DNA from: a bacterium
Lineage (GTDB): Bacteria; Patescibacteriota; Minisyncoccia; Phycocordibacterales; CAIZLB01
DNA length: 64,000 nucleotides
NCBI GenBank assembly: GCA_037142735.1
Contig: JBAXAB010000001.1
Coordinates: 36,915 to 100,914 of the forward strand
Direction: 5' to 3'
The notes beneath the pieces are model-generated. The model was given only the letters and a program-made list of their open reading frames with translations. It made no database searches and was not told the origin of the DNA. The position numbers and the translations under genes are program-made. Shown piece after piece: positions 3,620-59,272 of this stretch (positions are counted from its first letter, which is position 1; every line of letters begins with the position of its first letter).

Positions 3620-4215
3620 TCAGCGCGAAGGTTCTTTGAACAAAACATCTACGTATCTTGATGGCCGCGAGGTCAATCAAAGGTAAAGATGTCGAACCCT
3701 CTCCGCTCTGGTTACTCGTCCGACGTGTCGTAAACCAGTGTATGCGAAGAACAAACAGCATGTGAGTACCAAGTCAAAGGCACGCTGTTTCGCTAGGCAC
3801 AAAGATAAGTCCGGCGCACAAATGGATGCTTGTCCAAAGCTCCTACTCTATGGGTCCACAGGCGCCGTAAAGCGACATCGAATCGTCGGGAGGGGCAACG
3901 TGCTACCACCCGCTATCGAACTCGCAGCCGCCACCATCGCCGTCGCACAATGCGCGGCCGAGCATCAGAGATGGCCCAAGAAAATCTCAAGGACGAAAAC
4001 GAGCCGGGCAACCTTGAGAATGGACAGCGCTGCGGCGCAACAGGTTTCGATCAATCCCAGGTCGAAAGTGCAGGCAGTCTCGGCAGACACCGAAGCTGAA
4101 CCCGAAGTTCTTACCCGCACACCGAAGGGTACCCCGCTGTTGCGCGCCCCACGCGTGCACAGCGGGGGCCCGACGGCCTCCCACACACTGATCCCACCCC
4201 GGGGTCTTTTTTTGT
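3620..4215 (+). other. GC-rich island 1: ~600-nt segment ending in an intrinsic terminator. Candidate structured ncRNA or small-ORF cassette. Diverged paralog of the element at 18459-18860.
   Basis: Sharp GC rise versus neighbours. Extended hairpins, e.g. CCCCGCUGU..ACAGCGGGG. Conserved blocks shared with island 2 (TCGAACTC..CGCCACCA, ATGG..GACGAAAAC, GGCCCG..CCTCCCACAC). Only low-complexity overlapping ORFs. Confidence 0.4.
4193..4214 (+). terminator. Rho-independent terminator (CCCCGGGG hairpin plus a T7 run).
   Basis: acCCCGGGGtcttttttt lies immediately upstream of the leuS promoter region. Confidence 0.8.
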
Positions 4216-4267
4216 ACCTGAATTAGCGTTACTATCCATTTTTTGCTACTATTATTTTCATACTTTT

Positions 4268-6694
4268 ATGAAAAAGAAGGCCTCAAAATCTGTCTCAAAA
4301 ATCTCTTCAGTCTACGACCACTTAAAAATCGAAAAAAAGTGGCAAGCTGATTGGAAAAAATCGGGAATTTACAAAACCAAAGAGGGAGGTAAAAAGCCAA
4401 AAGCCTACGTCTTGGACATGTTTCCATATCCATCTGGTTCTGGACTTCACGTTGGGCACCCAAAGGGATACATCGCAACAGACGTATTCGCTCGTTTTAA
4501 ACGCATGTCTGGATTTAATGTTTTACATCCAATGGGTTGGGATGCGTTCGGATTACCAGCAGAGGAGTTTGCTTTAAAAAACAAAATTCATCCGAGTATA
4601 GCAGTCAAGACGAATGTAAAGTGTTATAAGGACCAACTTTCAATCCTCGGTTTCTGCTATGACTGGGATCGAGAAGTAAACACCACTGATCCTGAATACT
4701 ATAAATGGACTCAATGGGCGTTTTTACAGATGCATAAAAAAGGTTTGACGTATGAATCTCACGAACCTATCAATTGGTGTCCTTCGTGTAAAACTGGTCT
4801 TGCTAATGAAGATTTAGACAATGGAAAGTGTGAACGCTGTGGTTCAATTGTCGAAAAGAAGCCGATTCGTCAGTGGGTGATTGGCATTACAAAATATGCA
4901 GATAGACTTTTAAGTGATCTGGATGCTTTAGATTGGCCAAATTCTATTAAAGAGTCTCAGAAAAATTGGATTGGTCGTAGTGAAGGATCAGAATTAACCT
5001 TTGAAATTAAAGGTGGAGAGTCCGTCAGTGTTTTTACTACGCGTCCAGATACAATTTTTGGTGTGACATATCTTGTCCTTGCACCTGAGCATCATTTGAT
5101 TGAAAAAATAAAACCACGAATTGAAAACTGGGATAAAGTTCAGTCATTCATCAAAGACGTAGCCAAAAAAACGCAGATCGAACGAACGGCTGAGGGGAAA
5201 GAAAAAACCGGTGTACATTTATCTGGAATTTCTGCTGTGAATCCTGCGAATGGTGAAAAAGTACCCGTCTGGATTGCGGATTACGTTTTAGCAGATTACG
5301 GAACAGGTGCGGTTATGGCAGTACCGGCACATGACGAACGTGATTTTGTCTTTGCTAAAAAATATAACTTACCGATTATGGCAGTAATTGGATCCGAACA
5401 TGTGTCAGACGAAAAAGCCTACACCGGCGGTGGAACTTTGATTAATTCTGGAAAGTTTAACGGAAAAGATTCAGAATCTGTGATTAAGGAAATCACCAAA
5501 TTCTGTAATGGAAAATTAGTAGTGCGCTATAAATTACGAGACTGGGTATTTTCACGTCAGAGATACTGGGGAGAGCCGATTCCACTTGTTCACTGTGCTT
5601 CATGTGGAGTGGTGCCTGTGCCTGAAAAAGAACTTCCACTAAAACTTCCTAATGTAAAATTCTACGAACCGACAGGGACTGGAGAATCTCCTTTGGCTGC
5701 AATCGACAAATGGGTCAATACTAAATGTCCACAATGTAAGGGTCCTGCAAAACGCGAGACGAATACCATGCCTCAATGGGCTGGATCATGTTGGTATTAC
5801 CTTCGATACATGGATCCGAAAAATAAAAAGATGCTCGTGGATCCTAAAAAAGAAAAGTACTGGTCACCAGTTGATGTGTACGTTGGTGGCACCGAGCACG
5901 CAACGAGACACTTGATCTATGCAAGATTTTGGCACAAGTTTTTATATGATATTGGAGTCGTTTCCCAATCAGAACCATTTACGCAATTGCGAAATCAGGG
6001 ATTGATTATGGGACCTGATGGACAAAAAATGAGCAAGCGTTTTGGAAACGTAGTAAACCCAGATGATATTGTGAAATTATATGGAGCTGACAGTCTACGT
6101 GTATACGAAATGTTTATGGGTCCATTTGAGCAAGCGATCTCATGGAGTACTGACAACATGCTTGGTTCAAGACGATTTATTGAGCGTGTTTGGAGATTGA
6201 AACAGAAAATTTCTAAAGATTCTGTTAAAAAGGATACCGAACAACTTCTACATAAGACAATTAAAAAAGTAGGACAAGACATTCAGGGTTTTTCTCACAA
6301 TACTGCCATTTCATCAATGATGATTCTCTTAAATGCCCTAGAAAGTGAGGCTTCTGTTGATAAAAAAACGTATGAAACTCTTCTTCTTATCCTCGCTCCA
6401 TTTACTCCACATATCACTGATGATTTATGGTCTCAACTAGGACACAAAAAGAGCATACATTTGGAGGTGTGGCCTACATATGATGAATCAAAATTAATCA
6501 GTGATTCATTTAAAATAATGATCCAAGTTAATGGAAAAATACGTGGGTCACTAGAGACTAATAATCCTGAGGAAGCCTTTGTAATTAAGGCTGCAAAGGA
6601 AAAACCCGAGATTAAAAAGTATCTCGATGGTAATGAAATTATCAAGGAAATTTACGTCAAAAATAAGCTTGTCAACTTCGTCGTCAAGGGGTAA
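4268..6694 (+). CDS. leuS: Leucine--tRNA ligase.
   Basis: HIGH motif (HVGHP), KMSKS (QKMSKRFGN), CP1 editing domain, ~808 aa. Confidence 0.97.
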   Translation: MKKKASKSVSKISSVYDHLKIEKKWQADWKKSGIYKTKEGGKKPKAYVLDMFPYPSGSGLHVGHPKGYIATDVFARFKRMSGFNVLHPMGWDAFGLPAEEFALKNKIHPSIAVKTNVKCYKDQLSILGFCYDWDREVNTTDPEYYKWTQWAFLQMHKKGLTYESHEPINWCPSCKTGLANEDLDNGKCERCGSIVEKKPIRQWVIGITKYADRLLSDLDALDWPNSIKESQKNWIGRSEGSELTFEIKGGESVSVFTTRPDTIFGVTYLVLAPEHHLIEKIKPRIENWDKVQSFIKDVAKKTQIERTAEGKEKTGVHLSGISAVNPANGEKVPVWIADYVLADYGTGAVMAVPAHDERDFVFAKKYNLPIMAVIGSEHVSDEKAYTGGGTLINSGKFNGKDSESVIKEITKFCNGKLVVRYKLRDWVFSRQRYWGEPIPLVHCASCGVVPVPEKELPLKLPNVKFYEPTGTGESPLAAIDKWVNTKCPQCKGPAKRETNTMPQWAGSCWYYLRYMDPKNKKMLVDPKKEKYWSPVDVYVGGTEHATRHLIYARFWHKFLYDIGVVSQSEPFTQLRNQGLIMGPDGQKMSKRFGNVVNPDDIVKLYGADSLRVYEMFMGPFEQAISWSTDNMLGSRRFIERVWRLKQKISKDSVKKDTEQLLHKTIKKVGQDIQGFSHNTAISSMMILLNALESEASVDKKTYETLLLILAPFTPHITDDLWSQLGHKKSIHLEVWPTYDESKLISDSFKIMIQVNGKIRGSLETNNPEEAFVIKAAKEKPEIKKYLDGNEIIKEIYVKNKLVNFVVKG

Positions 6695-6757
6695 CTTGAC
6701 GGTATTCCGCATTTATGCTAAAACTAATACTAATTAAACGACAAATTAGCATATAAC

Positions 6758-7810
6758 ATGGCAATAGCAAACCTTCCATTCAAACCAAAACAGGTCACCA
6801 AGAAACTTCTTTCGTCACTGCACGAAAGAGCTCGGTTGGTTATCATAAAAAGATACGGTCTTGATAAAAATTCTGAGAGAATGACGCTTGAAGGTATCGG
6901 CCAGGACTACAATATCACTCGCGAACGTGTCCGCCAGATCGAAAATGCTGCTATTGCTAATATTCGTAAATCCTCACAATTCAGAGAAGAGGCCGCTTCT
7001 TTCTTGGCTCTTGAAACATTGATCCGTGACCTTGGTTCATTAATTTCAGAAGAAGATTTATTGAATCATCTTGCGAAAGATCCTTCTACAAAGAATCATT
7101 TCCATTTCATGCTCACTGTTGGTCTAACATTTAAAAAAGAACGCGAAGACGAAGAGTTTAAACACCGATGGCACGTTGATCCTGAATTAACTAAAAGAAT
7201 TCACGAAGCACTTAGAAAACTTTACAAATCTCTTTCAAATGATGACCTTGTTCCAGAATCTGAAATGATTCAGATGTTTTTCGATAACTTAAAAGACATT
7301 AATGACAAGTACAAGAGCGATGAAGTGTCCAAACGATGGTTACGCATTTCAAAACACATTGATAAGAATCCATTGGGTGAATGGGGCAAGACAAGTTCGC
7401 CAAATGTAAAGACAAAAGGCATCAGAGACTTTGCTTTTTTGGCTATGCGAAAACATGGTTCTCCAATCCACTTCCGAGACATTGCAAAATTGATCGAAAA
7501 ACTTTTCAACAAGAAAGCGCACATCGCAACGACTCATAATGAACTGATCAAGGATAAACGATTCGTCTTAGTTGGACGAGGTTTATATGCATTGGCAGAA
7601 TGGGGATACCTCAGTGGTGTTGTAAAGGATGTTATAAAGAAAGTTCTAGACAAACACGGTCCACTTCCAAAGGATGAAATCATTCAAAAAGTTTTAAAGG
7701 AAAGATTTGTAAAAGAAAACACTATCCTCGTTAACTTACAGAACAACAAATTCTTCAAAAAGGACAAAGATGGACGTTACCACATGGTAGATTTCACTGC
7801 TACTAAATAA
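6758..7810 (+). CDS. Sigma-70 region 4 domain protein with a C-terminal HARE-HTH domain.
   Basis: N-terminal region-4.2-like GIGQDYNITRERVRQIENAAIANIRK. C-terminal HARE-HTH signature FVLVGRGLYALAEWGY. Confidence 0.8.
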   Translation: MAIANLPFKPKQVTKKLLSSLHERARLVIIKRYGLDKNSERMTLEGIGQDYNITRERVRQIENAAIANIRKSSQFREEAASFLALETLIRDLGSLISEEDLLNHLAKDPSTKNHFHFMLTVGLTFKKEREDEEFKHRWHVDPELTKRIHEALRKLYKSLSNDDLVPESEMIQMFFDNLKDINDKYKSDEVSKRWLRISKHIDKNPLGEWGKTSSPNVKTKGIRDFAFLAMRKHGSPIHFRDIAKLIEKLFNKKAHIATTHNELIKDKRFVLVGRGLYALAEWGYLSGVVKDVIKKVLDKHGPLPKDEIIQKVLKERFVKENTILVNLQNNKFFKKDKDGRYHMVDFTATK

Positions 7811-7851: not shown

Positions 7852-9144
7852 ATGTATCTTGCTCTCATTCAATCTTCACTTGGGCCAGCTTTCACCTTTA
7901 TCTATTTGGTTGCTATTATCGCGATACCAATAGTGTTGTTTTTTGAACTTAATAAGAAATGGCAGAAATACCTACATGCTTATTATTTTAACAAACAAAC
8001 ATACACAGTTCTTGAATTAAAGATTCCAAAAAACAATACCAAATCACCACTTGCCATGGAGATTTTTCTTAATGCCCTTCAACAACCAGGAAAGGATTAC
8101 GAATGGAGAAAAAAATGGTGGACAGGAGAGGTTCGTGCCTGGTTCTCGCTAGAGATATGTTCGTTCGAAGGTAATGTACGTTTTTTTATATGGACAAAAA
8201 CAAAATATAAAGATTTACTAGAGAACCAGTTGTATTCTCAGTATCCAGATATTGAAATTAGTGACGTCGGCGCGCGTGACTATACGTACAACATACCCTT
8301 TGATGAAAGTAAGTATGAATACTGGGCTACCGAATGGAGAAAAAGAGAGCCTTCTCACTTACCTATAAAAACCTACATGGCTTTTGGACTTCAAGATGAT
8401 CCAAAAGAAGAATTTAGAATCGATCCAATTACACCACTTTTTGAATTTTTAGGATCACTGAAAAAAGGAGAACAGGTATGGTATCAAATTTGTGTCCGAG
8501 CACACGGAAAGGACAAATTTGATAAGGGAAAAGGTGCCTACGTTGACTGGAAGCACGCTGCTCAGAAGGATGTGTTGAAACTGACAAAACGAGATGCTCC
8601 TAATAAAGATGATAAATTTAATTTCATCATTTTGACCAAGGGTGAAAAACAAGCAGCGGATGCAATTGAAGACAACATTACAAAAGCAGCTTTCGATGTC
8701 GGAATTCGTGTTATCTATGCGGCAGAGAAAAGTGTATATCAAAAAAGTACCGTAGGTCGTATTAAAGCTTCGTTTAACCAGTTCAATGCCCCGAATTTGA
8801 ATAGTTTTGCTCGTGTGAATGACATTGACGATGACAAGTGGCGTTACCATTACTTACCATTCGGAAACAAGAGACTTTCTCGTCATAAAAAAAGACTTTT
8901 CGATCTTTATCGGCACCGATCGTTCTTTTATAGAGACTTTGTTCCGTATCCTCACAAAGAGGAAGAATTGATTTCGAACTTCTGGGTTTCAGATATAACA
9001 ACATGGTTTGATTCAAAAATCACCACATTCAGTGCTGAAGAGCTAGCAACTATTTACCACTTCCCAGGAGAAGTCGCAAAGACGCCAAGTGTAAACCGTG
9101 TGACTGCCAAGAAAGCCGAACCACCATCAAACTTACCTCAATAA
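7852..9144 (+). CDS. Hypothetical membrane-anchored protein (430 aa).
   Basis: N-terminal TM helix, Trp/Lys-rich, no recognisable catalytic motif. Directly downstream of the sigma-r4/HARE-HTH gene. Confidence 0.65.
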   Translation: MYLALIQSSLGPAFTFIYLVAIIAIPIVLFFELNKKWQKYLHAYYFNKQTYTVLELKIPKNNTKSPLAMEIFLNALQQPGKDYEWRKKWWTGEVRAWFSLEICSFEGNVRFFIWTKTKYKDLLENQLYSQYPDIEISDVGARDYTYNIPFDESKYEYWATEWRKREPSHLPIKTYMAFGLQDDPKEEFRIDPITPLFEFLGSLKKGEQVWYQICVRAHGKDKFDKGKGAYVDWKHAAQKDVLKLTKRDAPNKDDKFNFIILTKGEKQAADAIEDNITKAAFDVGIRVIYAAEKSVYQKSTVGRIKASFNQFNAPNLNSFARVNDIDDDKWRYHYLPFGNKRLSRHKKRLFDLYRHRSFFYRDFVPYPHKEEELISNFWVSDITTWFDSKITTFSAEELATIYHFPGEVAKTPSVNRVTAKKAEPPSNLPQ

Positions 9145-10202: not shown

Positions 10203-11282
10203 ATGATTGGAAAGTCTAAAAAGGTCTGGGTAGGAATGTCGGGCGGGGTCGACTCGTCTGTTTCAGCGTACCTTTTAAAGCAACAAGGTTACGACGTAAC
10301 CGGTGTTTTTATAAAAGTTTGGCAACCAAACGATGTTGAATGTACCTGGAAAGACGAACGACGAGACGCCATGCGAGTCTGCGCAGAGCTGGATATTCCT
10401 TTTTTAACTCTTGACCTAAGCGTTGAATATAAAATGCAGGTAGTTGACTATATGATCAGTGAATATGCCAAAGGGCGCACTCCAAATCCGGACATTATGT
10501 GTAATCGTCACATTAAATTTGGCGGTTTTCTAGATATGGCCAAAAGAATGGACATTGATTATGTAGCCACTGGTCACTATGCAAATGTTAAAAAAACTGA
10601 TGACGGCTATTTTTCATTATTTGAAGGAAAGGATCCATCCAAAGATCAAAGTTACTTTTTATGGACTCTTAATTCAGATGATTTGTCCAGAGTGCTTTTT
10701 CCTGTTGGACACTTGCTCAAAACGGAAGTGCGTAAGATTGCTCAAAAGGCAAAATTACCAGTTTTTGACAAAAAAGACAGCCAGGGAATTTGTTTCATTG
10801 GCCATGTTGATATGAAAGAATTCCTAAAGAAAAATATAGAGACCAGATCTGGATCTGTTCTTGATATTGATGGAAATGTAATAGGGGAACACGATGGTGC
10901 AATTCTATACACAATAGGAGAACGTGTTGGATTTAAGGCTTTTAAAACTGGCGCAGACGACAAAGCGATGTATATTCTAAGTAAAGACGTTTCAAATAAT
11001 ACTATCACCGTCATAGAAAATAATCTTTTAACCGTTGAAGGTTCTGAACACAATCAAGGCATAAGGATTGCCCAGCTAGCCGACGTTAACTGGAACACTG
11101 AAAAGACAAATACTGTCAGCAATTTAAAGGCTAGAGTTAGATACAGACAAGAAAAACAGGACTGTATTTTTGACCCAAATACGAGCAGGGTGACATTTTC
11201 TAAAGCGCAGGTCCTAGCAAGCGGACAATCCGTCGTTTTGTACAGTGGCGAAAGGTGCCTAGGTGGTGGTATTATAAGCTAA
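10203..11282 (+). CDS. mnmA: tRNA-specific 2-thiouridylase MnmA.
   Basis: PP-loop SGGVDSS, catalytic Cys motifs, C-terminal beta-barrel region. Confidence 0.93.
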   Translation: MIGKSKKVWVGMSGGVDSSVSAYLLKQQGYDVTGVFIKVWQPNDVECTWKDERRDAMRVCAELDIPFLTLDLSVEYKMQVVDYMISEYAKGRTPNPDIMCNRHIKFGGFLDMAKRMDIDYVATGHYANVKKTDDGYFSLFEGKDPSKDQSYFLWTLNSDDLSRVLFPVGHLLKTEVRKIAQKAKLPVFDKKDSQGICFIGHVDMKEFLKKNIETRSGSVLDIDGNVIGEHDGAILYTIGERVGFKAFKTGADDKAMYILSKDVSNNTITVIENNLLTVEGSEHNQGIRIAQLADVNWNTEKTNTVSNLKARVRYRQEKQDCIFDPNTSRVTFSKAQVLASGQSVVLYSGERCLGGGIIS

Positions 11283-11284
11283 TC

Positions 11285-12154
11285 ATGTTTCAGGAAGTTT
11301 TATTAGTAAAGACTGACGGCACCAAAGAGGTTTATGAACCTCATAAATTAAGAAATTCTCTCATTAAAGCTGGTGCCGGTGGTCATTCGGCTGATAAAGT
11401 TCTGACCGAAGTTTCAAATTATCTAGAAGAACATCTGAAAGGCAAAAAGAAATCTGAGGTAACGGTTTCCGAATTATACAAACTAGCTTTTGAATGTCTC
11501 AAAAAATATGCGGGGGATGCGGCGTTGCGATATTCACTTAAGAGGTCTCTTTTTGAACTTGGCCCGACCGGTTTTCCTTTTGAAAAATATATCGCTGAAA
11601 TTTTCAAGACTCAGGGTTTTGAAACCTTAACTGGCCAAATGGTGATGGGTAGCTGTGTTCCTCACGAGGTAGATCTAGTGGCGTGGAACGCTGATAAATT
11701 AATTATGGGTGAAGTAAAATATCACAACGATCCTGCTTCAAAGACAGATTTAAAAGTCGCCCTTTACGTAAGTGCGCGTTATAACGATATAAAACAAAAC
11801 ATGTTTGATTACGGCGGCACACCTCGTAAATTGGCCGAGTGGTACTTAATTACAAATACAAAGTTTACGGACACTGCGATCACCTATGCTGTGTGTAACG
11901 GAGTCAAATTATTAAGCTGGGTGTATCCAGAGACTGGAAATTTGCATGACATGATTGAAGACACCAAATCGCACCCGATTACATGTCTAAGCGCTCTTGA
12001 TGCAAGCCAAAAGAAGATGTTGATAGACAAAAATGTGATCCTTTGTCGACAGTTACATTCAAATACCGCCATTATGAAAGAACTTCACTTCAGCGAAGAG
12101 ACTATTTTTAACGTTCTAGAAGAAACAAATAAAATTATTACCACAAAAAAATAA
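11285..12154 (+). CDS. ATP-cone domain fused to an Mrr-like restriction-endonuclease (PD-(D/E)xK) domain.
   Basis: N-terminus LVKTDGTKEVYEPHKLRNSLIKAG..RYSLKR fits the ATP-cone consensus. C-terminus EVDLVAW..GEVKYH is an Mrr_cat-type D..E.K core. Start taken at MFQE, directly after the mnmA stop. Confidence 0.75.
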   Translation: MFQEVLLVKTDGTKEVYEPHKLRNSLIKAGAGGHSADKVLTEVSNYLEEHLKGKKKSEVTVSELYKLAFECLKKYAGDAALRYSLKRSLFELGPTGFPFEKYIAEIFKTQGFETLTGQMVMGSCVPHEVDLVAWNADKLIMGEVKYHNDPASKTDLKVALYVSARYNDIKQNMFDYGGTPRKLAEWYLITNTKFTDTAITYAVCNGVKLLSWVYPETGNLHDMIEDTKSHPITCLSALDASQKKMLIDKNVILCRQLHSNTAIMKELHFSEETIFNVLEETNKIITTKK

Positions 12155-12158
12155 GATT

Positions 12159-45419: not shown

Positions 45420-45464
45420 GGGAATAAAGTACCCGAGCTCGGCAAGAGGCCTTCGGGCCAAAAG

Positions 45465-46043: not shown

Positions 46044-46080
46044 TTGAAGGGGACTCGACTTCCCTATTTTGCCTTTTTAT

Positions 46081-51095: not shown

Positions 51096-52212
51096 GAGAA
51101 AGTCCTATTTTAAGAAGCTCTCTCGCTATCACATTAGATGCATTTTTCTGGGCAGTTTTTTGGGTCGCGTGTCTCATTCTTTCATTTACAGTGGCATTTG
51201 AAATAATACGATCAATTTCATTACAAATAATATTTGAACTAAGATTTGACTCTTCAATGACTACTGCCGCTCCATCTCGTGCATAATTGTACGCGTTCTT
51301 TCTCTGATGATCACCGTTTGAATTAGTAATCGGCACAATAATAGAAGGTAACCCCCAACATGCAATCTCAAAAATACTTGATCCTCCTCGTGATATGACC
51401 AATGAAGCACTTCCTGCGGACATTCTAAGAGCAATAGTAGTGAGGTAGTCAAATGGTCGATAACGATCCTTATGAGGATGGCCTTCGAGGGCGACGTTAG
51501 CGATTCCCTTCACACTCGTGATGTTGGATCGGCCCACCTGGTGAATTATCTGATATTTATTTAACAATACAGGTAATGAGTTTAAAATAGCATCGTTGAT
51601 AATCTGAGCACCTGATGAACCACCTAAGATTAAAATAACCGGTACGTCTTTTTCTAAGTTTAAATATTCAAAAGCACCAGTGCTTAAAACATCACGAATT
51701 TCTCGACGAACTGGCTGGCCTGTATACGCCACTTTATCCTTTGGAAAAAATTCTCCGGCTTCCTTGTATGAGACTGCGATTCTGGCTGCAAACTTACCAG
51801 CCCATGCATTCACACGGCCTGGCACGCTGTCGGATTCGTGAATAAACACAGGTATACCTAAAATTCTAGCTGCCAAATATGCCGGAAAACTTGTATATGC
51901 ACCTTTTCCAAAGACTACATCTGGAAAAATAAAAAACATTTTAACTAATCCAACCAAACATCCCCAGGCCATTTTGAACTTATCAAAGAAATTCAACACT
52001 GACTTGTATAGACGTTTTTTTCCTGCCGGCACATCAACGAACTTAATATCCAGGTCAAACAGTTCCTTTTCGTTATAAGGGTTATTCGACATGAAATAAA
52101 CCTGTGGTTCTAGGATTTTCTCCTCCCTGGAAATTTCACGAATAGATTCTGCCACTGCAATTAAAGGGTAAAAATGCCCTCCACTTCCCCCACCTGTCAT
52201 CAAGATTTTCAT
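51082..52212 (-). CDS. murG: UDP-GlcNAc--undecaprenyl-PP-MurNAc-pentapeptide GlcNAc transferase MurG.
   Basis: MKILMTGGGSGGHFYPLIAVAE, GT28 N- and C-terminal domains. Overlaps the M23 peptidase gene by 14 nt. Confidence 0.93.
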   Translation of the reverse strand: MKILMTGGGSGGHFYPLIAVAESIREISREEKILEPQVYFMSNNPYNEKELFDLDIKFVDVPAGKKRLYKSVLNFFDKFKMAWGCLVGLVKMFFIFPDVVFGKGAYTSFPAYLAARILGIPVFIHESDSVPGRVNAWAGKFAARIAVSYKEAGEFFPKDKVAYTGQPVRREIRDVLSTGAFEYLNLEKDVPVILILGGSSGAQIINDAILNSLPVLLNKYQIIHQVGRSNITSVKGIANVALEGHPHKDRYRPFDYLTTIALRMSAGSASLVISRGGSSIFEIACWGLPSIIVPITNSNGDHQRKNAYNYARDGAAVVIEESNLSSNIICNEIDRIISNATVNERMRHATQKTAQKNASNVIARELLKIGLSHENE

Positions 52213-52219
52213 GCTTGTA

Positions 52220-53329
52220 TTATACTATTTTCTTTTGAAACCTCGAAATGTTAATAACTATACCCACTGAGGCTAAAGCAAAGAATAGCGCCGTGCCACC
52301 ATGGCTGATAAATAACAATGGGGTACCGGAGAGTGGAATAATTGCCAACATGGCCGCAATATTCAAAAAAGATTGTAGCGAAATAAGCACAATAATACCT
52401 ATGGCTAAAATTGAACCGTATGTTTCCGTGGATCGAATGGCCACCCTAAAACCTTGAAACGTAAACATGAGATACAACATAATAATAGCAAGCGAGCCGA
52501 CGAAACCGAATTCTTCAGAAGCCACTGCAAAAATTGAATCACCAATTGGCTCTGGTAAGAAGTTGAATTTCTGAACACTTTGACCAAAGCCTCGACCAAA
52601 CACACCACCTGACCCAATCGCAATGAGAGACTGTTCAATTTGATAACTACTCCCTCTTGGATCTTTAGATGGATCAATAAAAGTTTTGACTCGTTGCATC
52701 AAATATGGGCGCATAAAAACTAAACAGATCAAACCAACCACACCTGCGAGGCCAATAAGCATAACATGTTTCCACCTTCCCCCCGCAGAAATAAACATGG
52801 CTGTTCCTGCTACTGCAACCACAATAAATGTATCGGTATCAGGCTGCATCAATATAAGACCAGCTGAAATTCCCAACATCACCAAAAATGGCAAGGTTCC
52901 GTATTTAAATGTATTAACTTTATTTTTAGTTGCAGTGAGGAGAGTCGCCAAATACATCACGAAACCTAATTTATAAAATTCAGCTGGTTGAAATGTAAAA
53001 GAACCGATTGAGACCCAACGCCTTGCTCCTCCATGGTAAAAACCAAGACCTGGAATAAACACGGCTAACATTGCCAGGAATGAAAACAAAAAGATCCAAA
53101 ACGACAATTTTCTCCACCAGCTGAAATGAACAACGGACATTGCAAGGCAAGCTACTACACCTGCCCCCAGACCAAACACCAACTGATTAAACATCACAGA
53201 ATAATATTTTACTTCTCCTTTATCGGTATTAGCCAAAAGCCCACTCGACGCAGACAGAAAAATAAAAACTCCAAAAATGACGAGGACAAGAACAATGATA
53301 AGAAAAGGTCTATCAGCTTTTTTCTGCAT
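52220..53329 (-). CDS. ftsW: SEDS-family peptidoglycan glycosyltransferase FtsW/RodA.
   Basis: 10-TM SEDS topology with conserved motifs (GGTALF..). Confidence 0.92.
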   Translation of the reverse strand: MQKKADRPFLIIVLVLVIFGVFIFLSASSGLLANTDKGEVKYYSVMFNQLVFGLGAGVVACLAMSVVHFSWWRKLSFWIFLFSFLAMLAVFIPGLGFYHGGARRWVSIGSFTFQPAEFYKLGFVMYLATLLTATKNKVNTFKYGTLPFLVMLGISAGLILMQPDTDTFIVVAVAGTAMFISAGGRWKHVMLIGLAGVVGLICLVFMRPYLMQRVKTFIDPSKDPRGSSYQIEQSLIAIGSGGVFGRGFGQSVQKFNFLPEPIGDSIFAVASEEFGFVGSLAIIMLYLMFTFQGFRVAIRSTETYGSILAIGIIVLISLQSFLNIAAMLAIIPLSGTPLLFISHGGTALFFALASVGIVINISRFQKKIV

Positions 53330-53349: not shown

Positions 53350-53847
53350 TTATTTATGAACTGAAATAAATGGAAATTCAATAATCTGATGTCTACTCTC
53401 TAAACCAGAGGGATTCTCGGCTGAAATAGATAATTTCATTTTTGTATCACTAGGAGCGTTCAAACCCATATCATCTACAACAAAGGAAAAGTTTGTAGTA
53501 GTACTCGCCCAATCAGTAACATGGATTATGTCTTTATTCACAGCTTCCCAAGTTCCAGTATTGTTTAAAAATAAGAGCTGCCAAGTTCCCGCCTGACCTT
53601 CAAACATTGTCCACGAACAGCCTTTATTTGAATTATCAACTACCCCTGAAATAGTGACAGGCAGACTGACTTGGTCATTTGGTTTAAGAGAAGTAATCTT
53701 GAATGCTTCACATTTTGGCACCTCTACAGTAGTAACTTTTACTGGAGCTTCTTTAAACTTTTGTACATATATATAGACCACCAATAAAACAATGACTATG
53801 ATTAAAAATGGAACAATAAAACCACCTTGATGTTTTTTCATATGCAC
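53350..53847 (-). CDS. Hypothetical protein with N-terminal TM (165 aa), in the position usually held by murD.
   Basis: TM IVPFLIIVIVLLVVYIYV. No motif. Confidence 0.65.
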   Translation of the reverse strand: MHMKKHQGGFIVPFLIIVIVLLVVYIYVQKFKEAPVKVTTVEVPKCEAFKITSLKPNDQVSLPVTISGVVDNSNKGCSWTMFEGQAGTWQLLFLNNTGTWEAVNKDIIHVTDWASTTTNFSFVVDDMGLNAPSDTKMKLSISAENPSGLESRHQIIEFPFISVHK

Positions 53848-53865
53848 AAAATTATATCACAAACC

Positions 53866-54930
53866 CTAGCTGATAAGCGCGACAACGGCCCCTAAAAGTC
53901 CACAAATAATCGAGATGACCCAATAACGCATAGTAACTTTATGCGAAGGCCAGCCCATCGCCTCAAAATGATGATGAAGTGGGGCTATTTTGAAAACTTT
54001 TTTACCAAAATATTTTTTAGAAATAAGCTGAATTGTTGATGACAGAGACGTGACCACTAGAGGGAAAGCTACGATCGGCAACACCAACACTTCTTTAGTT
54101 AGGAAAGCAACAACAGCAAGCGTCACTGTAATACCGATCATTCCGGTCTCCCCCAAATAAAATCTAGCCGGTGGAATATTAAACCAAAGGAAGGCCAAAA
54201 TACCCCCGGCGACTACCGCACAAAAAGCCGCGAGGTCAATTTGATGATTTCCAAAAGCGATCACTGCATATGATACAAACGCCGAAGCCATGACACCTGC
54301 AGCCAATCCATCAATTCCATCAATGACTGAACCCGAGAAAGTCCCAAGCACGACTAATATGAAAAAAGGTACAAACCACAGTCCAAGTGCTAAATCCCCA
54401 TCAAAAGGAATGTGAATTGAGAGGTTGCCAAGTTTAAAATAAAACCACCAAGCACCGACCGCCCCGATTAAAATAACCATAAGCGTACGCATTGTGCGAG
54501 AAATACCATCACTCATTTTTAGATCTTTTCCATAAATCTGTAAAAAGTCGTCAACTAATCCCATTAGTGATGCAAAGAGTAAAATAGCTAAAGGTAAAAT
54601 TGTTTGGTTACGACTCAAGAAATTTAATTTTTCTGCCATTGGGCCCGGAAAAATATATGGCAATACGGACACTAACACGCTGACAATGGCGACTGACAAC
54701 CATACAACTACACCCCCGACTCGCGGGGTCGATGTCTCCCCTTTCTCGTTGTGGATTTTAATAAAAGCAGGAGACATAGCTTCGGTATTTTCATGACTAC
54801 GAGACGCCTTTCTCCACATCTTATACTTGTACATGTATCTAGCTAAAATAGGTGTGATCAAAATCCCAACCATAAAGGTCAAGAATGACGGGAAGATTAT
54901 TTTGATAACATCGATGATTAAGTCGCTCAT
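53866..54930 (-). CDS. mraY: Phospho-N-acetylmuramoyl-pentapeptide transferase MraY.
   Basis: Polytopic, conserved DD and HHH motifs (PLHHHFE). Confidence 0.95.
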   Translation of the reverse strand: MSDLIIDVIKIIFPSFLTFMVGILITPILARYMYKYKMWRKASRSHENTEAMSPAFIKIHNEKGETSTPRVGGVVVWLSVAIVSVLVSVLPYIFPGPMAEKLNFLSRNQTILPLAILLFASLMGLVDDFLQIYGKDLKMSDGISRTMRTLMVILIGAVGAWWFYFKLGNLSIHIPFDGDLALGLWFVPFFILVVLGTFSGSVIDGIDGLAAGVMASAFVSYAVIAFGNHQIDLAAFCAVVAGGILAFLWFNIPPARFYLGETGMIGITVTLAVVAFLTKEVLVLPIVAFPLVVTSLSSTIQLISKKYFGKKVFKIAPLHHHFEAMGWPSHKVTMRYWVISIICGLLGAVVALIS

Positions 54931-54935
54931 GTTTT

Positions 54936-55535
54936 TTAATTTTGTGAAGAAAGATTATTATTGGCCCCCTGCTCTTTTTGCTCCTTAAAATTTTGTAATT
55001 CTATTTGAACTTTTTCAAAGTCTGGTAACTTGCTTAATTCAGACACGCCCAAATGGGCAAGAAGATCAAATGAGGCTGAGTACAAAAATGTACGCGAGTC
55101 CTTCGGATCAGATTTTTTTTCAATTAATCCCCGGACAAGAAGATTTCTAATGATAAAGGATGAATTAACTCCTCGTATATAATCAACATCGCTGCGACGA
55201 ATTGGGCCTTTATACAGAATAATAGACAATGTTTCAAGAGAAGCCTTACCAAGTTCAGCAGACTCTTCTTCCATGCTGATTTTTTTAATAAGTTCTGATG
55301 ATTCTGGGCTTGTAGCCAAGAAAACTTCCATATTTTCAGGTTTTGTGTCCCCAGAATTTTTTATGAGCACGATTCCCCTGTTTTCTAAACTTTTTTCAAG
55401 TACTGGAATATGCTCAATTATCACATCAGTTGCCACAGAAAGCATTCGTGATAATTCCTTAACAGACACAGGGGCAGATTTCCAAAAAAGTATGGATTCG
55501 ATTTGTTGTTCAATTTTATGGGTATGCTGTTCCAT
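54936..55535 (-). CDS. scpB: Segregation and condensation protein B.
   Basis: Tandem winged-helix ScpB signature (ESILFWKSAPVSVKELSRML..). Confidence 0.9.
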   Translation of the reverse strand: MEQHTHKIEQQIESILFWKSAPVSVKELSRMLSVATDVIIEHIPVLEKSLENRGIVLIKNSGDTKPENMEVFLATSPESSELIKKISMEEESAELGKASLETLSIILYKGPIRRSDVDYIRGVNSSFIIRNLLVRGLIEKKSDPKDSRTFLYSASFDLLAHLGVSELSKLPDFEKVQIELQNFKEQKEQGANNNLSSQN

Positions 55536-55539
55536 TGAT

Positions 55540-56283
55540 TTACATGTAGTGAGGTGTGCCTATACTATAACTTTCCATTTCAATTTCATCAAACAAACCA
55601 TTTTGACGTGCGTCGACTGTTCCCTGCTTTACCAGTTCAAGAAGGGCCAGGAAGCTGACGATCACATTCACTTTTTCTGCACGACCTTTATTACTAAAAT
55701 CAGAGAATGACATTTTAATAGCAGATTTAATACGAACTGTAAGATTGTCCATCATTTCCTCTAAGCTGATCACTTTTTGTACTTTAACTTTAGGTAATGC
55801 GGCCTCTGTTTTAGGAAGATTATTCAAGACCCTTCCCATTGCGTCTGTTAGGCCCTGCAAAGTCGCATCGGTTCCTGGATTAAAAAAGATCTCTCGTTGT
55901 GGACTATTTTCTTGGAAAAATAAGACCTTTCGTCCAAAAAGTTTTCTAACTTCTAATGATTGCCGACGCATCACTTCTAATTCCTTGAGGCGCGCTTCCA
56001 AATCCTCAATACTACCCTTTTCGTCTTCAGTCAGTGGCAGGTTTGGTAAAAGAGACTTTGCCTTAATCAGGAGGAGTGTGGATGCGATGAGAATAAATTG
56101 AGTTCGATCATCCATCGAATATTCAGGCAATTGCGAGATGTGATTGATGTATTCGTCAGTGACCGATGCCAATGAAATATCACTAATAAATAATTTACGT
56201 TTTTCCACCAACGACAACAACAAATCCAGAGGTCCTTCGAAGACTTCCGTTTTTATTTTGAATGTTGGCGCGGTGGGCTGCAT
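55540..56283 (-). CDS. scpA: Segregation and condensation protein A.
   Basis: FEGPLDLLLSLVEKRKLFISDISLASVTDEY. Confidence 0.9.
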   Translation of the reverse strand: MQPTAPTFKIKTEVFEGPLDLLLSLVEKRKLFISDISLASVTDEYINHISQLPEYSMDDRTQFILIASTLLLIKAKSLLPNLPLTEDEKGSIEDLEARLKELEVMRRQSLEVRKLFGRKVLFFQENSPQREIFFNPGTDATLQGLTDAMGRVLNNLPKTEAALPKVKVQKVISLEEMMDNLTVRIKSAIKMSFSDFSNKGRAEKVNVIVSFLALLELVKQGTVDARQNGLFDEIEMESYSIGTPHYM

Positions 56284-57746
56284 TATTTAGAAGCTTCTGG
56301 TTTTTTAATCATAATACCCAAATCACGTAATTGATCACCAGAAACTGAACTTGGAGCGTTCATCATGAGGTCTCTTCCTTCTCCAGTCTTTGGAAAAGCC
56401 ATAACTTCACGGATATTTGGCTCGTTCTCTAGGATCATCATAAGGCGATCAAATCCCCATGCGATTCCACCATGAGGTGGCGTTCCACTTTTAAATGCGT
56501 GTAACATGTGACCAAAATTATTTTCTACAGTCTCTTTGTCATAACCCATAATTTCAAAGACCTTTAACAATGATTCTGGTTTATGATTTCGAACACTTCC
56601 TCCTCCGATTTCATATCCATTCAATACAATATCGTATTGTGCCGCCAGTAAAGTATTCATGTCTTCAGATCCAGCGCTACTTGCCATCAATTTTTCATTA
56701 AACTCTGGTTTAACTGCTGAAAATGGATTATGGGTAAAAGTCCAATTACTTGTCCCTGCCCCTGTTCCATTCTTACTAGTCCCGTTTGCATTCTTTTCAT
56801 TTTTTTCAAAGAAGGGAAAATCTATTACCCAGCAAAAAGCCAAGAGGTTCAGATCGTTTTTATCCGCCCGTAAGTCTGGTCGATCAATTTTATATTCTGC
56901 CATTGCTTTCGCATATGGAATTCGAGGAAACGGAACTTCTTGAATTTTTTTGTGTGGATAAAGTTCTGCGACAATTTGAATCAGCAATTGTTCGGTAATC
57001 TGCATTATTTCTTCTTCATCTGCAAAACTTAATTCCATATCCAATTGAGTAAACTCGGGCTGACGATCACCTCTTGTGTCTTCATCACGCATACATTTTG
57101 CCATTTGAAAATATCTTTCAATGCCACCCGCCATCAGTAATTGTTTGTACTGCTGTGGTGATTGAGGTAATGCATAAAAACTTCCTACTTCTAAACGAGA
57201 TGGAACAATAAAGTCACGTGCACCTTCTGGCGTCGATTTGGTGAGAAGTGGCGTTTCAACTTCAGTGAAATTGATACCGGCCAAAAAGTTTCGAATATAC
57301 GTAACAACTTTTGCGCGATTGCGAATATTTTTTTGCAGTCTCTCTCCACGCATATCAACGTAACGGTATTTCAAACGAACCTCCTCATTAATTTCGCGAG
57401 TATCAGAATGAATATCAAAAGGTGGAGTCTCTGCTTCATTCAACACGATCATGCTGAGAATTTCCAATTCAATATCGCCATTAAATTTATCTTTTTGAAT
57501 TGCACGTTCAGGTCGAGTATTCACTTTACCCACAACTTCAACTACCCACTCAGAACGTAACGTTGAACCAACCTTATGTGCTTCTGGAGCAGACGGCAAA
57601 ATCACCCCCTGCACCTTCCCTGTCATATCGCGAAAATCAAAAAAGATCATTTTGCCTTGATCACGACGAACATCAATCCAGCCTTTAATCATAACCTCCT
57701 GCCCGGCAGAAGCCTTTAAATCCTTGATAAATACACGTTTTTTCAT
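56283..57746 (-). CDS. aspS: Aspartate--tRNA ligase, short form (487 aa).
   Basis: N-terminal OB anticodon-binding domain. Class II motifs (FRDMTG.., QLDMELSF, GGGSVRNH motif 3). Confidence 0.88.
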   Translation of the reverse strand: MKKRVFIKDLKASAGQEVMIKGWIDVRRDQGKMIFFDFRDMTGKVQGVILPSAPEAHKVGSTLRSEWVVEVVGKVNTRPERAIQKDKFNGDIELEILSMIVLNEAETPPFDIHSDTREINEEVRLKYRYVDMRGERLQKNIRNRAKVVTYIRNFLAGINFTEVETPLLTKSTPEGARDFIVPSRLEVGSFYALPQSPQQYKQLLMAGGIERYFQMAKCMRDEDTRGDRQPEFTQLDMELSFADEEEIMQITEQLLIQIVAELYPHKKIQEVPFPRIPYAKAMAEYKIDRPDLRADKNDLNLLAFCWVIDFPFFEKNEKNANGTSKNGTGAGTSNWTFTHNPFSAVKPEFNEKLMASSAGSEDMNTLLAAQYDIVLNGYEIGGGSVRNHKPESLLKVFEIMGYDKETVENNFGHMLHAFKSGTPPHGGIAWGFDRLMMILENEPNIREVMAFPKTGEGRDLMMNAPSSVSGDQLRDLGIMIKKPEASK

Positions 57747-57870
57747 GAAGGTTAGTTTAGCAAAAATATGCTTAATTTAAAAGGTTTTGAATTAACACGT
57801 ATATTGACAAATATATATAGATATGGTATCATTAGAAAGTAGACAGATCTTTAAAAGCAGGTCATTGGTA

Positions 57871-57917
57871 GGTTACAGACAACTTCTTGTTTCTTAAGTA
57901 AGTAGTTGTCTGTAACC
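57871..57917 (+). promoter_or_regulatory. Perfect 14-bp inverted repeat (GGTTACAGACAACT-N19-AGTTGTCTGTAACC) just upstream of the island 7 leader. Operator-like and overlaps a weak promoter.
   Basis: Seen directly. Followed by taaGGTTGCGGaaaacaacacaccaccaataccc ATG. Confidence 0.5.
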
Positions 57918-57951
57918 TAAGGTTGCGGAAAACAACACACCACCAATACCC

Positions 57952-58428
57952 ATGAAAACACCCCTCAACTTCATCGAAACCCACGCTTACACGCTCGCCA
58001 TCACGATCGGAGGAAGCGTCATCGCCTGCATCCTCATCGGATGCGTGATGCTCCGGCAAGCCTATATCAAGGCGCAAAGTGCAAAGCGCGCCCGCAAGGA
58101 CGAGCTGGACACAGAAACCGCCGTCTGCGCGGAGCTGCGATACCCAATGCTTCGCGACTCTTACCGCAAAGCGGTCAGCACCAGGCGACGGTTCGACACC
58201 AAATCCCCGATCGCCGACGAGATGTACAACCATCTCAGCGACATCCGGTTCGCGTTCTTCGAAGGAGTCGCTCGCCTCATCGGGCGAGGGGCACCACTCT
58301 ACGTAGACAAATTCCCTCGCGGAGTGTGTCACGTGATCTGGAACACGCTCTTCGGTTGGACCATCCTCCTCACCGGCTGGCTTCACCTCGTTGAAGTCGC
58401 CCGGGCGAAGGAGGTCCAAGCGAGCTGA
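57952..58428 (+). CDS. Membrane-anchored protein (158 aa) in GC-rich island 7.
   Basis: ATG after the A/C-rich leader aaaacaacacaccaccaataccc. TM LAITIGGSVIACILIGCVML, Arg-rich cytoplasmic region, second hydrophobic segment near the C-terminus. Confidence 0.6.
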   Translation: MKTPLNFIETHAYTLAITIGGSVIACILIGCVMLRQAYIKAQSAKRARKDELDTETAVCAELRYPMLRDSYRKAVSTRRRFDTKSPIADEMYNHLSDIRFAFFEGVARLIGRGAPLYVDKFPRGVCHVIWNTLFGWTILLTGWLHLVEVARAKEVQAS

Positions 58429-58454
58429 GAGCAGATCGTCCTGGAAAACCCAAA

Positions 58455-58502
58455 GCCGTCAGGCGCAAGTACCCACTCTTGCCCTGGCGGTTTTCCTTTT
58501 GT
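58455..58502 (+). terminator. Intrinsic terminator of the island 7 gene.
   Basis: Long imperfect hairpin CCGUCAGGCGCAAG..CUUGCCCUGGCGG followed by UUUUCCUUUUGU. Confidence 0.5.
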
Positions 58503-58530
58503 ATACATAATTTATTTTAAGTGACAGCAT

Positions 58531-58572
58531 TTTAAAAACGAACACCCGGCCCTTCGTGAGAAATGCCGGGTG
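58531..58572 (-). terminator. Intrinsic terminator of the pilin gene.
   Basis: Minus strand CACCCGGC..GCCGGGUG followed by UUCGUUUUUAAAAUG. Confidence 0.6.
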
Positions 58573-58617
58573 GTGTGAGTTTGATGGACGCTTGTGAAGC
58601 TGCCGGTCGCCGCCGAG

Positions 58618-59031
58618 TTAGTTGTAGGGCGACCAGAAGCTTGCGGCTGCGGGAGTGTCCTTCGTGACGTCGGCGAACGCTTCGACGGTTGCAGACGAAA
58701 CCTTTGCATGTCGGGTTCCGACGGGCAAGGTGATCGCATGACCGAGGATGTCCACGCCGCCGCTCGAGTAGAGACGCGTGCCGGGTTTGAGGTAGGCCTG
58801 GACGTCCATCCACTTGGGGATGACGCCAGGTTCCTTCGCCGCGAGGGCGTATTGGTCGGCAGCGATGTCAACGAGCCGCAGCTCTTCGATCGTCATGTTC
58901 GCCTGCGAACGCTTGCGGCCACGCAGCCAGTTCGGGACGGCGATGGCGGCGAGCAGGGCGATGATCGCGACGACGATCATGATTTCAACGAGCGTAAAGC
59001 CCGTGCGTTTGGTGTTCAGTTTACGGAGCAT
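58618..59031 (-). CDS. Type IV pilin / pseudopilin (138 aa) in GC-rich island 8.
   Basis: Class III signal and N-terminal helix MLRKLNTKRTGFTLVEIMIVVAIIALLAAIAVPNW (G|FTLVE). ATG directly after caacgcaacatcaaaccaacaccaaacaacacacc. The upstream extension to 59163 is unlikely to be coding. Confidence 0.8.
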   Translation of the reverse strand: MLRKLNTKRTGFTLVEIMIVVAIIALLAAIAVPNWLRGRKRSQANMTIEELRLVDIAADQYALAAKEPGVIPKWMDVQAYLKPGTRLYSSGGVDILGHAITLPVGTRHAKVSSATVEAFADVTKDTPAAASFWSPYN

Positions 59032-59094
59032 GGTGTGTTGTTTGGTGTTGGTTTGATGTTGCGTTGCAGAACGCAGCCAATGCCGTGAGGCGCT

Positions 59095-59142
59095 GGTTGC
59101 GGAATAAAGACAATATAAAAATACAGGCTTTATTCCGCAACC
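59095..59142 (-). promoter_or_regulatory. Perfect 15-bp inverted repeat (GGTTGCGGAATAAAG-N18-CTTTATTCCGCAACC) embedding a TTGCGG-N17-TATATT promoter-like sequence upstream of the pilin leader.
   Basis: Seen directly. Shares the GGTTGCGG word with the sequence after the island 7 palindrome. Confidence 0.5.
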
Positions 59143-59272
59143 ATTCACATATGTGTCCATCAATATTTAAGGAACAATTTATTAAAAATTATCACAGATG
59201 TGGGTAAAGTCAAGTGTGTTGTAACCAGTACACAGGGTAAAAAATAAAGGATCAAGAAAACAATAACAAAAA

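Follow-up and report, generated by a model that had tools for sequence, protein, structure and literature searches.

The 64000 nt window analysed here, i.e. the whole stretch of DNA under study, comprises positions 37001–101000 of the 128 kb metagenome contig ERZ27300101 k141_330149 (ENA; a megahit k141 short-read assembly), and it carries a series of GC-rich islands dispersed between its core genes. The contig belongs to a low-GC Paceibacteria-like genome (39% GC) of the candidate phyla radiation (CPR), and we place at a little under 0.6 the probability that the islands represent flexible DNA of this genome that is exchanged horizontally, being autonomous, usually monocistronic accessory units located between the terminators of housekeeping genes. 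Core genes in the window include those for Leu-, Ala-, Cys- and Asn/Lys-type tRNA synthetases, DnaB, RecR, YchF, ribosomal proteins, MraY/FtsW/MurG and ScpAB. The nearest genomes are metagenome-assembled genomes with a CtpA identity of 73–78%, followed by Paceibacteria, Nomurabacteria and Patescibacteria labelled as ‘Saccharibacteria’.

Compositional islands are a textbook signature of HGT (horizontal gene transfer), and the composition of the present islands is foreign at each of the three codon positions. A preliminary description of the window had picked out ten GC-rich segments by eye against a low-GC background, and all ten proved to be real, with GC peaks of 0.50–0.63 over a background of 0.35–0.41. 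The GC3 (GC content at third codon positions) of the cargo genes lies between 0.51 and 0.78, compared with 0.34 ± 0.04 in 54 core genes (z = 4.8–12.4), the exception being I3b at 0.38, and the values for first and second codon positions (GC1/GC2) are 0.56/0.41 compared with 0.47/0.35 in the core. Preferred codons in the islands (CTC over CTG for leucine and CGC for arginine) are those of the contig of the pilin donor described below, overall codon choice lies between that donor and the CPR core, and the coding strand of the islands is slightly C-rich. Selection on codon usage by itself is an unlikely cause of the GC-richness, as the shift also affects GC1, GC2 and the untranslated linkers, and fast evolution by itself is ruled out by fast-evolving genes that are AT-rich (44212–44703). 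The initial count of ‘at least nine’ islands can now be replaced by 13 units in 11 regions, occupying 13.2% of the window, with I8 (45546–46060) as an addition and with both 28280–29140 and 38740–40090 comprising two units. These units, with their predicted promoters, 5′-untranslated regions (5′UTRs), open reading frames (ORFs) and terminators, are as follows (SD, Shine–Dalgarno; aa, amino acids; TM, transmembrane).

I1, 3588–4215, plus strand: transcription unit of ~600 nt with a GC of 0.52–0.61; promoter TTGACA-16-TAGGGT at 3588–3615; terminator ccccggggtcttttttt at ~4195–4215.
I2, 18459–18948, minus strand: promoter TTGACT-17-TATACT at 18948–18920; 5′UTR of ~144 nt with two hairpins; leader ..aaccaaccaccaacgaaaccATG; proline-rich 53-aa ORF at 18768–18607; long 3′UTR and terminator; GC3 0.65.
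I3a, 28640–29135, minus strand: promoter TTTCCA-17-TATAGT; 5′ hairpin; A/C leader; 115-aa ORF at 29044–28697; terminator; GC3 0.51.
I3b, 28280–28639, minus strand: SD-type start (taaggaggtg-N9-ATG); acidic 75-aa ORF at 28545–28318; GC3 0.38.
I4, 31645–31999, minus strand: promoter TTGACA-18-TAAAAT at 31999–31970; unstructured 37 nt A/C leader ..caccacaaccaaaacccactcaccaccATG; 70-aa ORF at 31925–31713; GC hairpin terminator.
I5a, 39470–40089, minus strand: AT-rich, conserved promoter/5′UTR with hairpins (cgctgataaaaaagcg); A/C leader; 139-aa multi-TM ORF at 39940–39521; terminator.
I5b, 38740–39469, minus strand: SD-type start; −10 region tATTAGTCT; GGAGGA; 195-aa ORF at 39405–38818 for a predicted right-handed β-helix; conserved 3′UTR/terminator (aaacgaaacaattcac..ccgccggggtttt).
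I6, 41605–42405, minus strand: promoter TTGACA-17-TATTAT at 42405–42377; structured 5′UTR of 107 nt; leader ..accacaaaccaaccaccaatatcATG; N-terminally anchored 190-aa ORF at 42262–41690; A/C-rich 3′ linker and terminator.
I7, 44733–45545, plus strand: promoter TTGACA-17-GATAAT at 44733–44761; 5′UTR of 150 nt with hairpin ggatgcaaa..ttgcatc; leader gtcacaccaccacacctaaccaccaccgaccacccaccATG; anchored 166-aa ORF at 44919–45419; long hairpin terminator.
I8, 45546–46060, plus strand: conserved platform (tagaggggata..atgtcgcacaatatatcttttgcgacat hairpin); A/C leader; ORF encoding MKKK followed by a stop; terminator at 46015–46040.
I9, 46080–47640, minus strand: promoter TTGACG-18-TAAATT at 47640–47611; hairpin in a 5′UTR of 92 nt; orphan 463-aa ORF at 47511–46120 (GTG start as listed; 450 aa in the public call); terminator at 46118–46091.
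I10, 57804–58512, plus strand: promoter TTGACA-17-TATCAT at 57804–57832; AT-rich 5′ hairpin at 57872–57920; leader ..aaaacaacacaccaccaatacccATG; anchored orphan 158-aa ORF at 57952–58428; terminator; GC3 0.75.
I11, 58513–59213, minus strand: σ70-like promoter (TTGACT at 59213–59208); AT-rich hairpin at 59140–59090; GC-rich segment with a possible degenerate σ54-type motif; leader ..caaaccaacaccaaacaacacaccATG; 137-aa prepilin ORF at 59031–58618; terminator at 58572–58543.

As had been observed at the outset, all units are intergenic and flanked by the terminators of core genes, and most units share one architecture, consisting of a promoter, a structured 5′UTR, a G-poor A/C tract, an ORF and a terminator of their own. 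Terminator-like sites in the 38–48 kb interval number 25, compared with 8.3 ± 3.1 in shuffled sequence. The strong σ70-like promoters claimed initially are found in I2, I4, I6, I7 and I10 (10–11 of the 12 consensus positions), whereas those of the other units are weaker (nine positions in I1, I3a and I9); the raw count of promoter-like matches (20 compared with 17.8 in shuffles) shows no excess, and the island promoters are credited because of their position and their conservation across species. The predicted 5′UTRs are 40–150 nt long; a strong hairpin is usually located close to the 5′ end and is followed by a non-folding stretch of 25–45 nt up to the ATG. A/C-rich, G-poor tracts also occur in 3′UTRs, following the stop codon and preceding the terminator hairpin (I6, 41661–41689; I8, 45974–46014; I9, 46115–46139).

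The cargo is as heterogeneous as first described. Most islands encode small membrane-anchored proteins, a pilin, a β-helix protein or orphans, and roughly one cargo protein in two carries a hydrophobic anchor at its N-terminus or TM segments; the label ‘small acidic proteins’ fits I3b and none of the other units. Apart from the pilin, the cargo matched no family in NCBIfam or Pfam, and a search for defence systems with PADLOC returned only a weak similarity of I9 to Csx3-AAA (E = 7e-5, residues 292–390), with a Walker-A-like GGPPATSKST. Among 5.8e9 proteins, I9 matched only itself and I10 had no relative. The single-sequence AlphaFold2 (AF2) model of I9 had a pLDDT (predicted local distance difference test) score of 35 and was not usable.

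GC-rich islands in AT-rich genomes are often genes for structured non-coding RNA, and I1, possibly with I8, might be such a gene rather than a protein gene, a reading that we regard as possible but doubtful. I1 has a promoter and a terminator, yet neither a convincing ORF nor a gene in the public record at this position, and its fold is more stable than expected (z = −2.3), with none of 100 shuffles folding as well; it matched no Rfam family, even at E<=1, and could equally be a decayed foreign gene. In I8 the start codon is followed by nine A residues and then a stop (45798–45812), so that only MKKK is encoded, whereas seven A residues would open a 57-aa ORF. An I8-type platform in one relative (8830–8991 of comparison locus L003; labels of this form denote comparison loci, 115 of which were used for motif counts) is followed by an intact 53-aa ORF, which makes a disrupted gene more likely than a non-coding RNA. 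I8 is probably a small ORF in a frameshifted or phase-off state; the frameshift may lie in the homopolymer and could reflect phase variation, decay to a pseudogene or an error of sequencing.

Comparison with close relatives shows that the islands are part of the flexible genome, being present, absent or replaced. The I5 site, i.e. the gap between L9 and L27, is empty in L005, L006, L087 and L097, where just the two terminators are left, and in L004 it contains two GC-rich genes, one of which is 33% identical with I5a at the amino acid level. The I6 site is likewise empty in L003, L005, L087 and L097 and holds another GC-rich gene in L004; I3a and I4 are absent from L005, L086 and L087, and I9 is absent from L003 and L004. 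Between L113 and L005, CtpA and L9 are 100% identical and the flanks 94–96% identical, and an I5b-family unit is found in the gap of L113 only. We also observed that the I5 site of L003 (2260–3560) contains an AT-rich gene of ~1.3 kb on the opposite strand and no GC-rich units, from which it follows that this slot also accepts cargo of native composition.

These comparisons bear on the possibility that chimeric assembly had introduced GC-rich reads of foreign organisms into the CPR contig, as might be feared with a short-read metagenome assembly. A Logan contig from another sample (L002, SRR7053531; 4.1 kb, 100% identical with 53760–57865) does stop at 57865, at the start of the 5′ hairpin of I10, an end that may reflect population variation or a drop in coverage. 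An artefact would nevertheless have to account for 13 distinct insertions that all fall exactly between terminators and have promoter, leader and terminator in the correct orientation, and for orthologous filled sites in independent assemblies (L003, L004 and L113–L115), where the same types of island/core junction are seen again (L003, L004 and L113). In addition, the same contig was recovered three times, in the ENA, NCBI and JGI assemblies (127.9–128.1 kb). We consider contamination close to refuted.

For one island, comparison with other phyla identified a donor. The I11 product has the N-terminal prepilin motif (PF07963, E = 5e-8; also TIGR02532) and a hydrophobic segment at residues 8–38, in agreement with its first annotation as a type IV pilin, and it has thousands of full-length homologues with 60–65% amino acid identity. 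These homologues are Verrucomicrobia (Chthoniobacteraceae-type) prepilins of 133 aa, encoded in tandem arrays on contigs with 64–66% GC, one of which is annotated as Chthoniobacteraceae. The likeness extends to the DNA at both ends of the ORF, with ~88–90% identity over the first ~200 nt (our own count) and complete identity over the last 24 nt, and to the terminator, as a 30 nt motif (CACCCGG..TT.C....G...GGCCGGGTG) was found in I11 and the donor pilin units only, with 0 occurrences expected by chance. The donor pilin units have a σ54-type promoter (TGGCAC-N5-TGCTT; L083 6540–6565, 7265–7290 and 7880–7905; L084 5270–5295), a GC hairpin, an A/C-rich leader and ACCATG, and their paralogues carry near-identical terminators around divergent ORFs; non-pilin genes on the donor contigs have leaders such as ..aaccaaacctcaagaccaaatccagaccATG. 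As hairpin, A/C leader and ACCATG are shared by the donor units, the island layout and leader style are native to this GC-rich, SD-poor phylum, and the alignments show that I11 was acquired from a Verrucomicrobia-type donor, bringing with it the leader style and the terminator of the pilin unit. In contrast with the donor arrays, I11 is a single copy behind an AT-rich σ70-type promoter and an AT-rich 5′ hairpin. It keeps GGCATtggcTGCgtt (~59075–59060, minus strand), 2 nt short of the canonical σ54 spacing, and this may be the remnant of a dead σ54 promoter. The proposal of a high-GC donor made in the preliminary description is borne out for I11; no donor was found for I5b, I9 and I10, the other islands covered by this search.

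To our knowledge, the hosts and interaction mechanisms of most Patescibacteria have not been established. In this context, the transfer of an unameliorated pilin unit to a place behind a CPR promoter gives a testable candidate for a partner, and possibly the host, namely Chthoniobacterales-like freshwater Verrucomicrobia, and also suggests surface mimicry or the use of host-type pilins.

The β-helix unit I5b shows a different distribution. Its AF2 model is all-β and repetitive (pLDDT 94), and the protein is confidently predicted to be a right-handed β-helix. The top matches of the model in the PDB are pentapeptide-repeat proteins, none of them significant (E >= 0.085), and Pentapeptide_3 was reached by an I5b paralogue only, at E = 6e-4 and below the family cut-off. 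The I5b family comprises ~45 clusters among 1.8e9 representatives. The members examined are in AT-rich, leaderless-type genomes and in three contexts, one being the L27–L9 gap (the window and L113) and the two others being found in L085 and L115. A promoter segment (TTGAC..ATGTATTAGTCTT..GGAG) is common to L085, L113 and L115. In the window copy, the TATTAGTCT core is retained together with GGAGGA. The 12-mer TGTATTAGTCTT is present in five of the 115 loci only, each time ~20–40 nt upstream of an I5b-family ATG, the window unit having the shorter TATTAGTCT. The GC of the family genes (0.49–0.54) is always ~0.10–0.15 above that of their neighbours (0.33–0.42); a member in a genome of ~50% GC shows no compositional contrast. 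The I5b unit travels together with its promoter among AT-rich genomes of the same leaderless type, two of which are demonstrable relatives of this CPR genome. A second I5b-family gene lies on the same contig ~7.7–10 kb past the end of the window (L108 2204–2794; 19% identical with I5b, GC 0.48, similar promoter layout), with two or three more GC-rich small genes at L108 5568–7155.

The A/C-rich leaders differ clearly from those of the core genes. An SD core is present in just one of the 54 core genes, and in 24 of them a TATAAT-like box (often TGnTATAAT) ends 4–12 nt ahead of the start codon (e.g. 20875–20891, 42420–42441, 44195–44214 and 51082–52225), which points to leaderless mRNAs as a widespread feature of this CPR lineage; the remaining core genes have A/T-rich, G-poor leaders. 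In agreement with the initial statement that core genes have AT-rich leaders without the A/C element, core leaders consist of 0.38 A, 0.16 C, 0.13 G and 0.33 T, compared with 0.40 A, 0.40 C, 0.08 G and 0.10 T in island leaders. A/C-rich tracts are ~4-fold more frequent than in block shuffles (28 compared with 6.6 ± 2.2), and ~10 of them adjoin island start codons. Within nine leaders, CACCAC and ACCACC occur eight times each (1.2 expected), which none of 500 composition-matched shuffles equalled, and a shared 13-mer was reached in four of 500; the resemblance between leaders therefore exceeds what composition gives. It does not extend to I3b and I5b, which have an SD-like GGAGG and no A/C tract, or to I9, the leader of which is ordinary. 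We know of no partner for the CACCAC and ACCACC words. As the style is also native to the donor phylum, we attribute the likeness to shared function and composition and not to a common mobile cassette: the A/C leader is a generic G-poor, unstructured, SD-independent style and no shared element.

Two regimes of translation initiation are thus predicted within one small genome, the core being leaderless or SD-less and the accessory genes having leaders with an unfoldable A/C tract. We propose that the strong σ70 promoter would drive a leadered mRNA of each unit, that the 5′ hairpin and the strong 3′ hairpin may stabilize or protect this mRNA, and that the unfoldable A/C tract would provide an SD-independent ribosome landing site, probably of the S1/unstructured-leader type with an ACC-ATG context. 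The A/C leader may be viewed as the GC-rich counterpart of the A/T-rich or leaderless core starts, and would be the same solution as in the donor phylum. The island products would probably be cell-surface or interaction proteins of an episymbiont.

More distant comparisons revealed conserved frames around divergent GC-rich ORFs. At the I5a, I5b, I7, I8 and I3b sites, the AT-rich promoter and 5′UTR hairpins are kept between species in which four-fold sites of core genes are saturated (identity 0.36–0.40), and for I5b and I7 the 3′UTR is conserved as well. The syntenic homologues of I5a, I5b and I7 have only 31–34% amino acid identity and are random at four-fold sites, and the GC3 is 0.58–0.69 in both lineages. 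Between I5a and L004, for example, the promoter/5′UTR is largely invariant over ~150 columns (~85%, our own count), whereas the ORF is 33% identical; for I7, the promoter, hairpin and leader start are conserved in L003, L004 and L005, the 3′UTR in L003 and L004, and the cargo has 32–34% identity with that of L003. The variable segment begins within the A/C tract and ends ~30 nt past the stop codon. A simple ancient transfer followed by amelioration was rejected for I5a, I5b and I7, given that core four-fold sites are saturated and the island GC3 is still 0.58–0.69. Conserved frames with divergent GC-rich ORFs therefore require either that the cargo is renewed inside old frames or that GC-richness is actively maintained, the latter possibly through biased gene conversion or through selection favouring mRNA that is poor in U, unstructured and resistant to nucleases. 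Such frames offer a natural case for studying what blocks amelioration, be it repeated replacement, biased gene conversion or mRNA selection.

At the I3b site, which shares its promoter, its 5′ hairpin and its SD platform with L005 (3380–3860), L086 (reverse complement, 6983–7445) and L087 (reverse complement, 2025–2504), the ORFs of 61–66 aa contain cysteine and are hyperdivergent and mosaic. In three strains with 91–97% identical genomes, the flanks are 100% identical and a difference of 40–50% is confined strictly to the ORF, from codon 2 to before the terminator, and this mosaic pattern indicates the exchange of alleles by recombination.

These data raise the possibility that the islands are endogenous hypervariable ‘contingency’ genes, long-term residents of the CPR clade under diversifying or balancing selection, with alleles shuffled by homologous recombination through conserved UTRs and flanks, GC kept by biased gene conversion in the highly polymorphic segment or by mRNA selection and not owed to a foreign origin, and the pilin a separate, incidental transfer into such a slot. 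The mosaic differences at I3b, the conservation in several species of platforms that enclose, at one and the same site, cargo of 31–34% identity, the persistence of GC3 despite saturated core synonymous sites and the finding of the I5b family in CPR-like contexts only would all fit this scheme, which has a precedent in the vls locus of Borrelia (49% compared with 28.6% GC; PMC11499132). We nonetheless consider it rather unlikely. The clearly mosaic I3b has a normal GC3 of 0.38, so that hypervariability and GC3 are not coupled at that locus, and other fast-evolving genes stay AT-rich, e.g. 44212–44703 with 42–50% identity and a GC3 of 0.37. GC1, GC2, linkers and interrupted-T terminators look foreign too, and the pilin demonstrates that import between phyla yields exactly this signature. 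Ongoing hypermutation was rejected, as none of the 70 SNPs (single nucleotide polymorphisms) between L112 and L113 is in the I5b island and all 70 are in the flanks, and neither partial nor silent copies of the islands were found by blastn and tblastx in 82.8 kb of the contig.

The same frames could alternatively belong to a dedicated gene-capture system, in which AT-rich platforms act as landing pads for the repeated insertion or exchange of GC-rich ORFs, e.g. from the host, either site-specifically as in integrons or guided by UTR homology to donor families. The platform does appear older than its cargo, given that the frames are conserved and the ORFs distantly related and unameliorated, and the variable segment has the limits given above; furthermore, the terminator common to the donor pilin paralogues and the CPR copy means that UTR homology arms exist. 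Against this, a given platform usually contains distantly homologous cargo rather than unrelated genes, the pilin is the only one of the islands searched (I5b, I9, I10 and I11) with a donor found, and neither a common junction motif among the islands nor the machinery of such a system was detected in the window, where no integrase, transposase or reverse transcriptase is present among the annotated ORFs and where the island 3′ hairpins and borders, compared by blastn, gave no attC-like consensus. We therefore regard gene capture of this kind as very unlikely. A related and still improbable view sees the islands as ancient conserved expression slots (AT-rich σ70 promoter and 5′ hairpin; 3′UTR hairpin), the ORFs of which were repeatedly renewed with GC-rich DNA from partners, including Verrucomicrobia, guided by UTR segments shared with donor families, or which are held GC-rich by biased gene conversion. 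If true, the former version would mean that the symbiont continuously samples and expresses host-type surface proteins, and either version would imply a locus-specific process overriding the AT pressure of the genome.

Returning to horizontally exchanged accessory units as our preferred explanation, several points weigh against it. A donor was found for the pilin only (the donor question was examined for I5b, I9, I10 and I11), with I9 and I10 being without relatives, and those members of the I5b family that were examined belong to CPR-like genomes and not to a high-GC phylum. The homologues of I5a, I5b and I7 keep their high GC3 although the core is saturated, and a conserved AT-rich promoter/5′UTR and 3′UTR around such divergent ORFs needs cargo replacement in a fixed frame or active maintenance of GC. 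Finally, neither integration machinery nor a target-site signature was found in the window.

The islands do not constitute one repeat family or a recognized mobile element. All-against-all blastn and tblastx comparisons of the islands showed no mutual similarity and no paralogy, and no flanking repeats were found, the empty and filled I5b sites being without a clear duplication. ARAGORN and Rfam (at gathering thresholds) returned no tRNA or other RNA genes in the whole window. A phage origin was rejected, as viral-contig scans with I5b, I6, I7, I9, I10 and I11 gave no relatives except generic pilin matches of 40–50%, and so was a diversity-generating retroelement, since the window lacks a reverse transcriptase and divergence extends over the whole ORF at all bases and is not adenine-specific. 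The idea in the preliminary description that one cassette had been reused many times consequently holds for the architecture and not for a homologous or mobile family, given the absence of sequence homology, flanking repeats or a recombinase in the window and the use of an SD start by two units. Likewise, the ‘undescribed system’ suspected there was not demonstrated as a cassette system, and the units are read as horizontally exchanged accessory transcription units. Elsewhere in the window, a RhuM/Fic-domain protein (1322–2308) and an ATP-cone/Mrr-like nuclease followed by a PD-(D/E)XK (Cas4-like) nuclease (11255–12956) all have a core-like composition.

Several known systems resemble the islands in part. 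Integron cassettes are promoterless, are arrayed at one attI beside intI and carry attC sites; the island units are similarly small, mostly single-ORF elements with a heterogeneous, often orphan cargo and a hairpin-forming 3′ end, but they are dispersed, each has its own promoter and the window contains neither an integrase nor an attC-like consensus. CA-multimer enhancers and ompA-type 5′ hairpins that stabilize mRNA are familiar from E. coli, and the G-poor, non-folding island leader before the ATG, the 5′-terminal hairpin and the strong terminator are reminiscent of such SD-independent, CA-rich or S1-dependent leaders and 5′ stabilizers. In contrast with these, the function of the island leaders is predicted from sequence only, and the host's own genes use leaderless starts.

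High GC is also kept in the variable surface-protein locus vls of the AT-rich Borrelia genome (PMC11499132), where, as in the islands, surface-protein sequence is far GC-richer than the genome and its composition is kept across species despite divergence. However, vls has one expression site with an adjacent array of silent cassettes and a G-rich coding-strand skew of +0.52, whereas the islands have no silent copies in 82.8 kb, a slightly C-rich coding strand and no ongoing variation in close strains (I5b, L112 compared with L113).

Literature searches for earlier accounts of such islands in CPR genomes returned only broad surveys of HGT and a hypervariable repeat gene that is unrelated. In Patescibacteria, islands and transferred genes have previously been reported to reach 13% of the genome length (PMC12455944), and the present islands share with those an atypical composition, a sporadic distribution, orphan or surface-related cargo, an inter-phylum donor for at least one gene and a similar fraction (13% of the window). 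They differ in being single-gene units scattered over many sites, each with a complete expression frame of its own and none with mobility genes, tRNA targets or repeats, and in that their AT-rich frames are conserved across species whereas the GC-rich ORFs are not, with a GC-richness that outlasts the expected time of amelioration. What is new here is thus the dispersed, self-contained single-gene format, the inter-phylum transfer traced to the terminator, the two initiation regimes and the pattern of conserved frames around hyperdivergent, GC-persistent ORFs.

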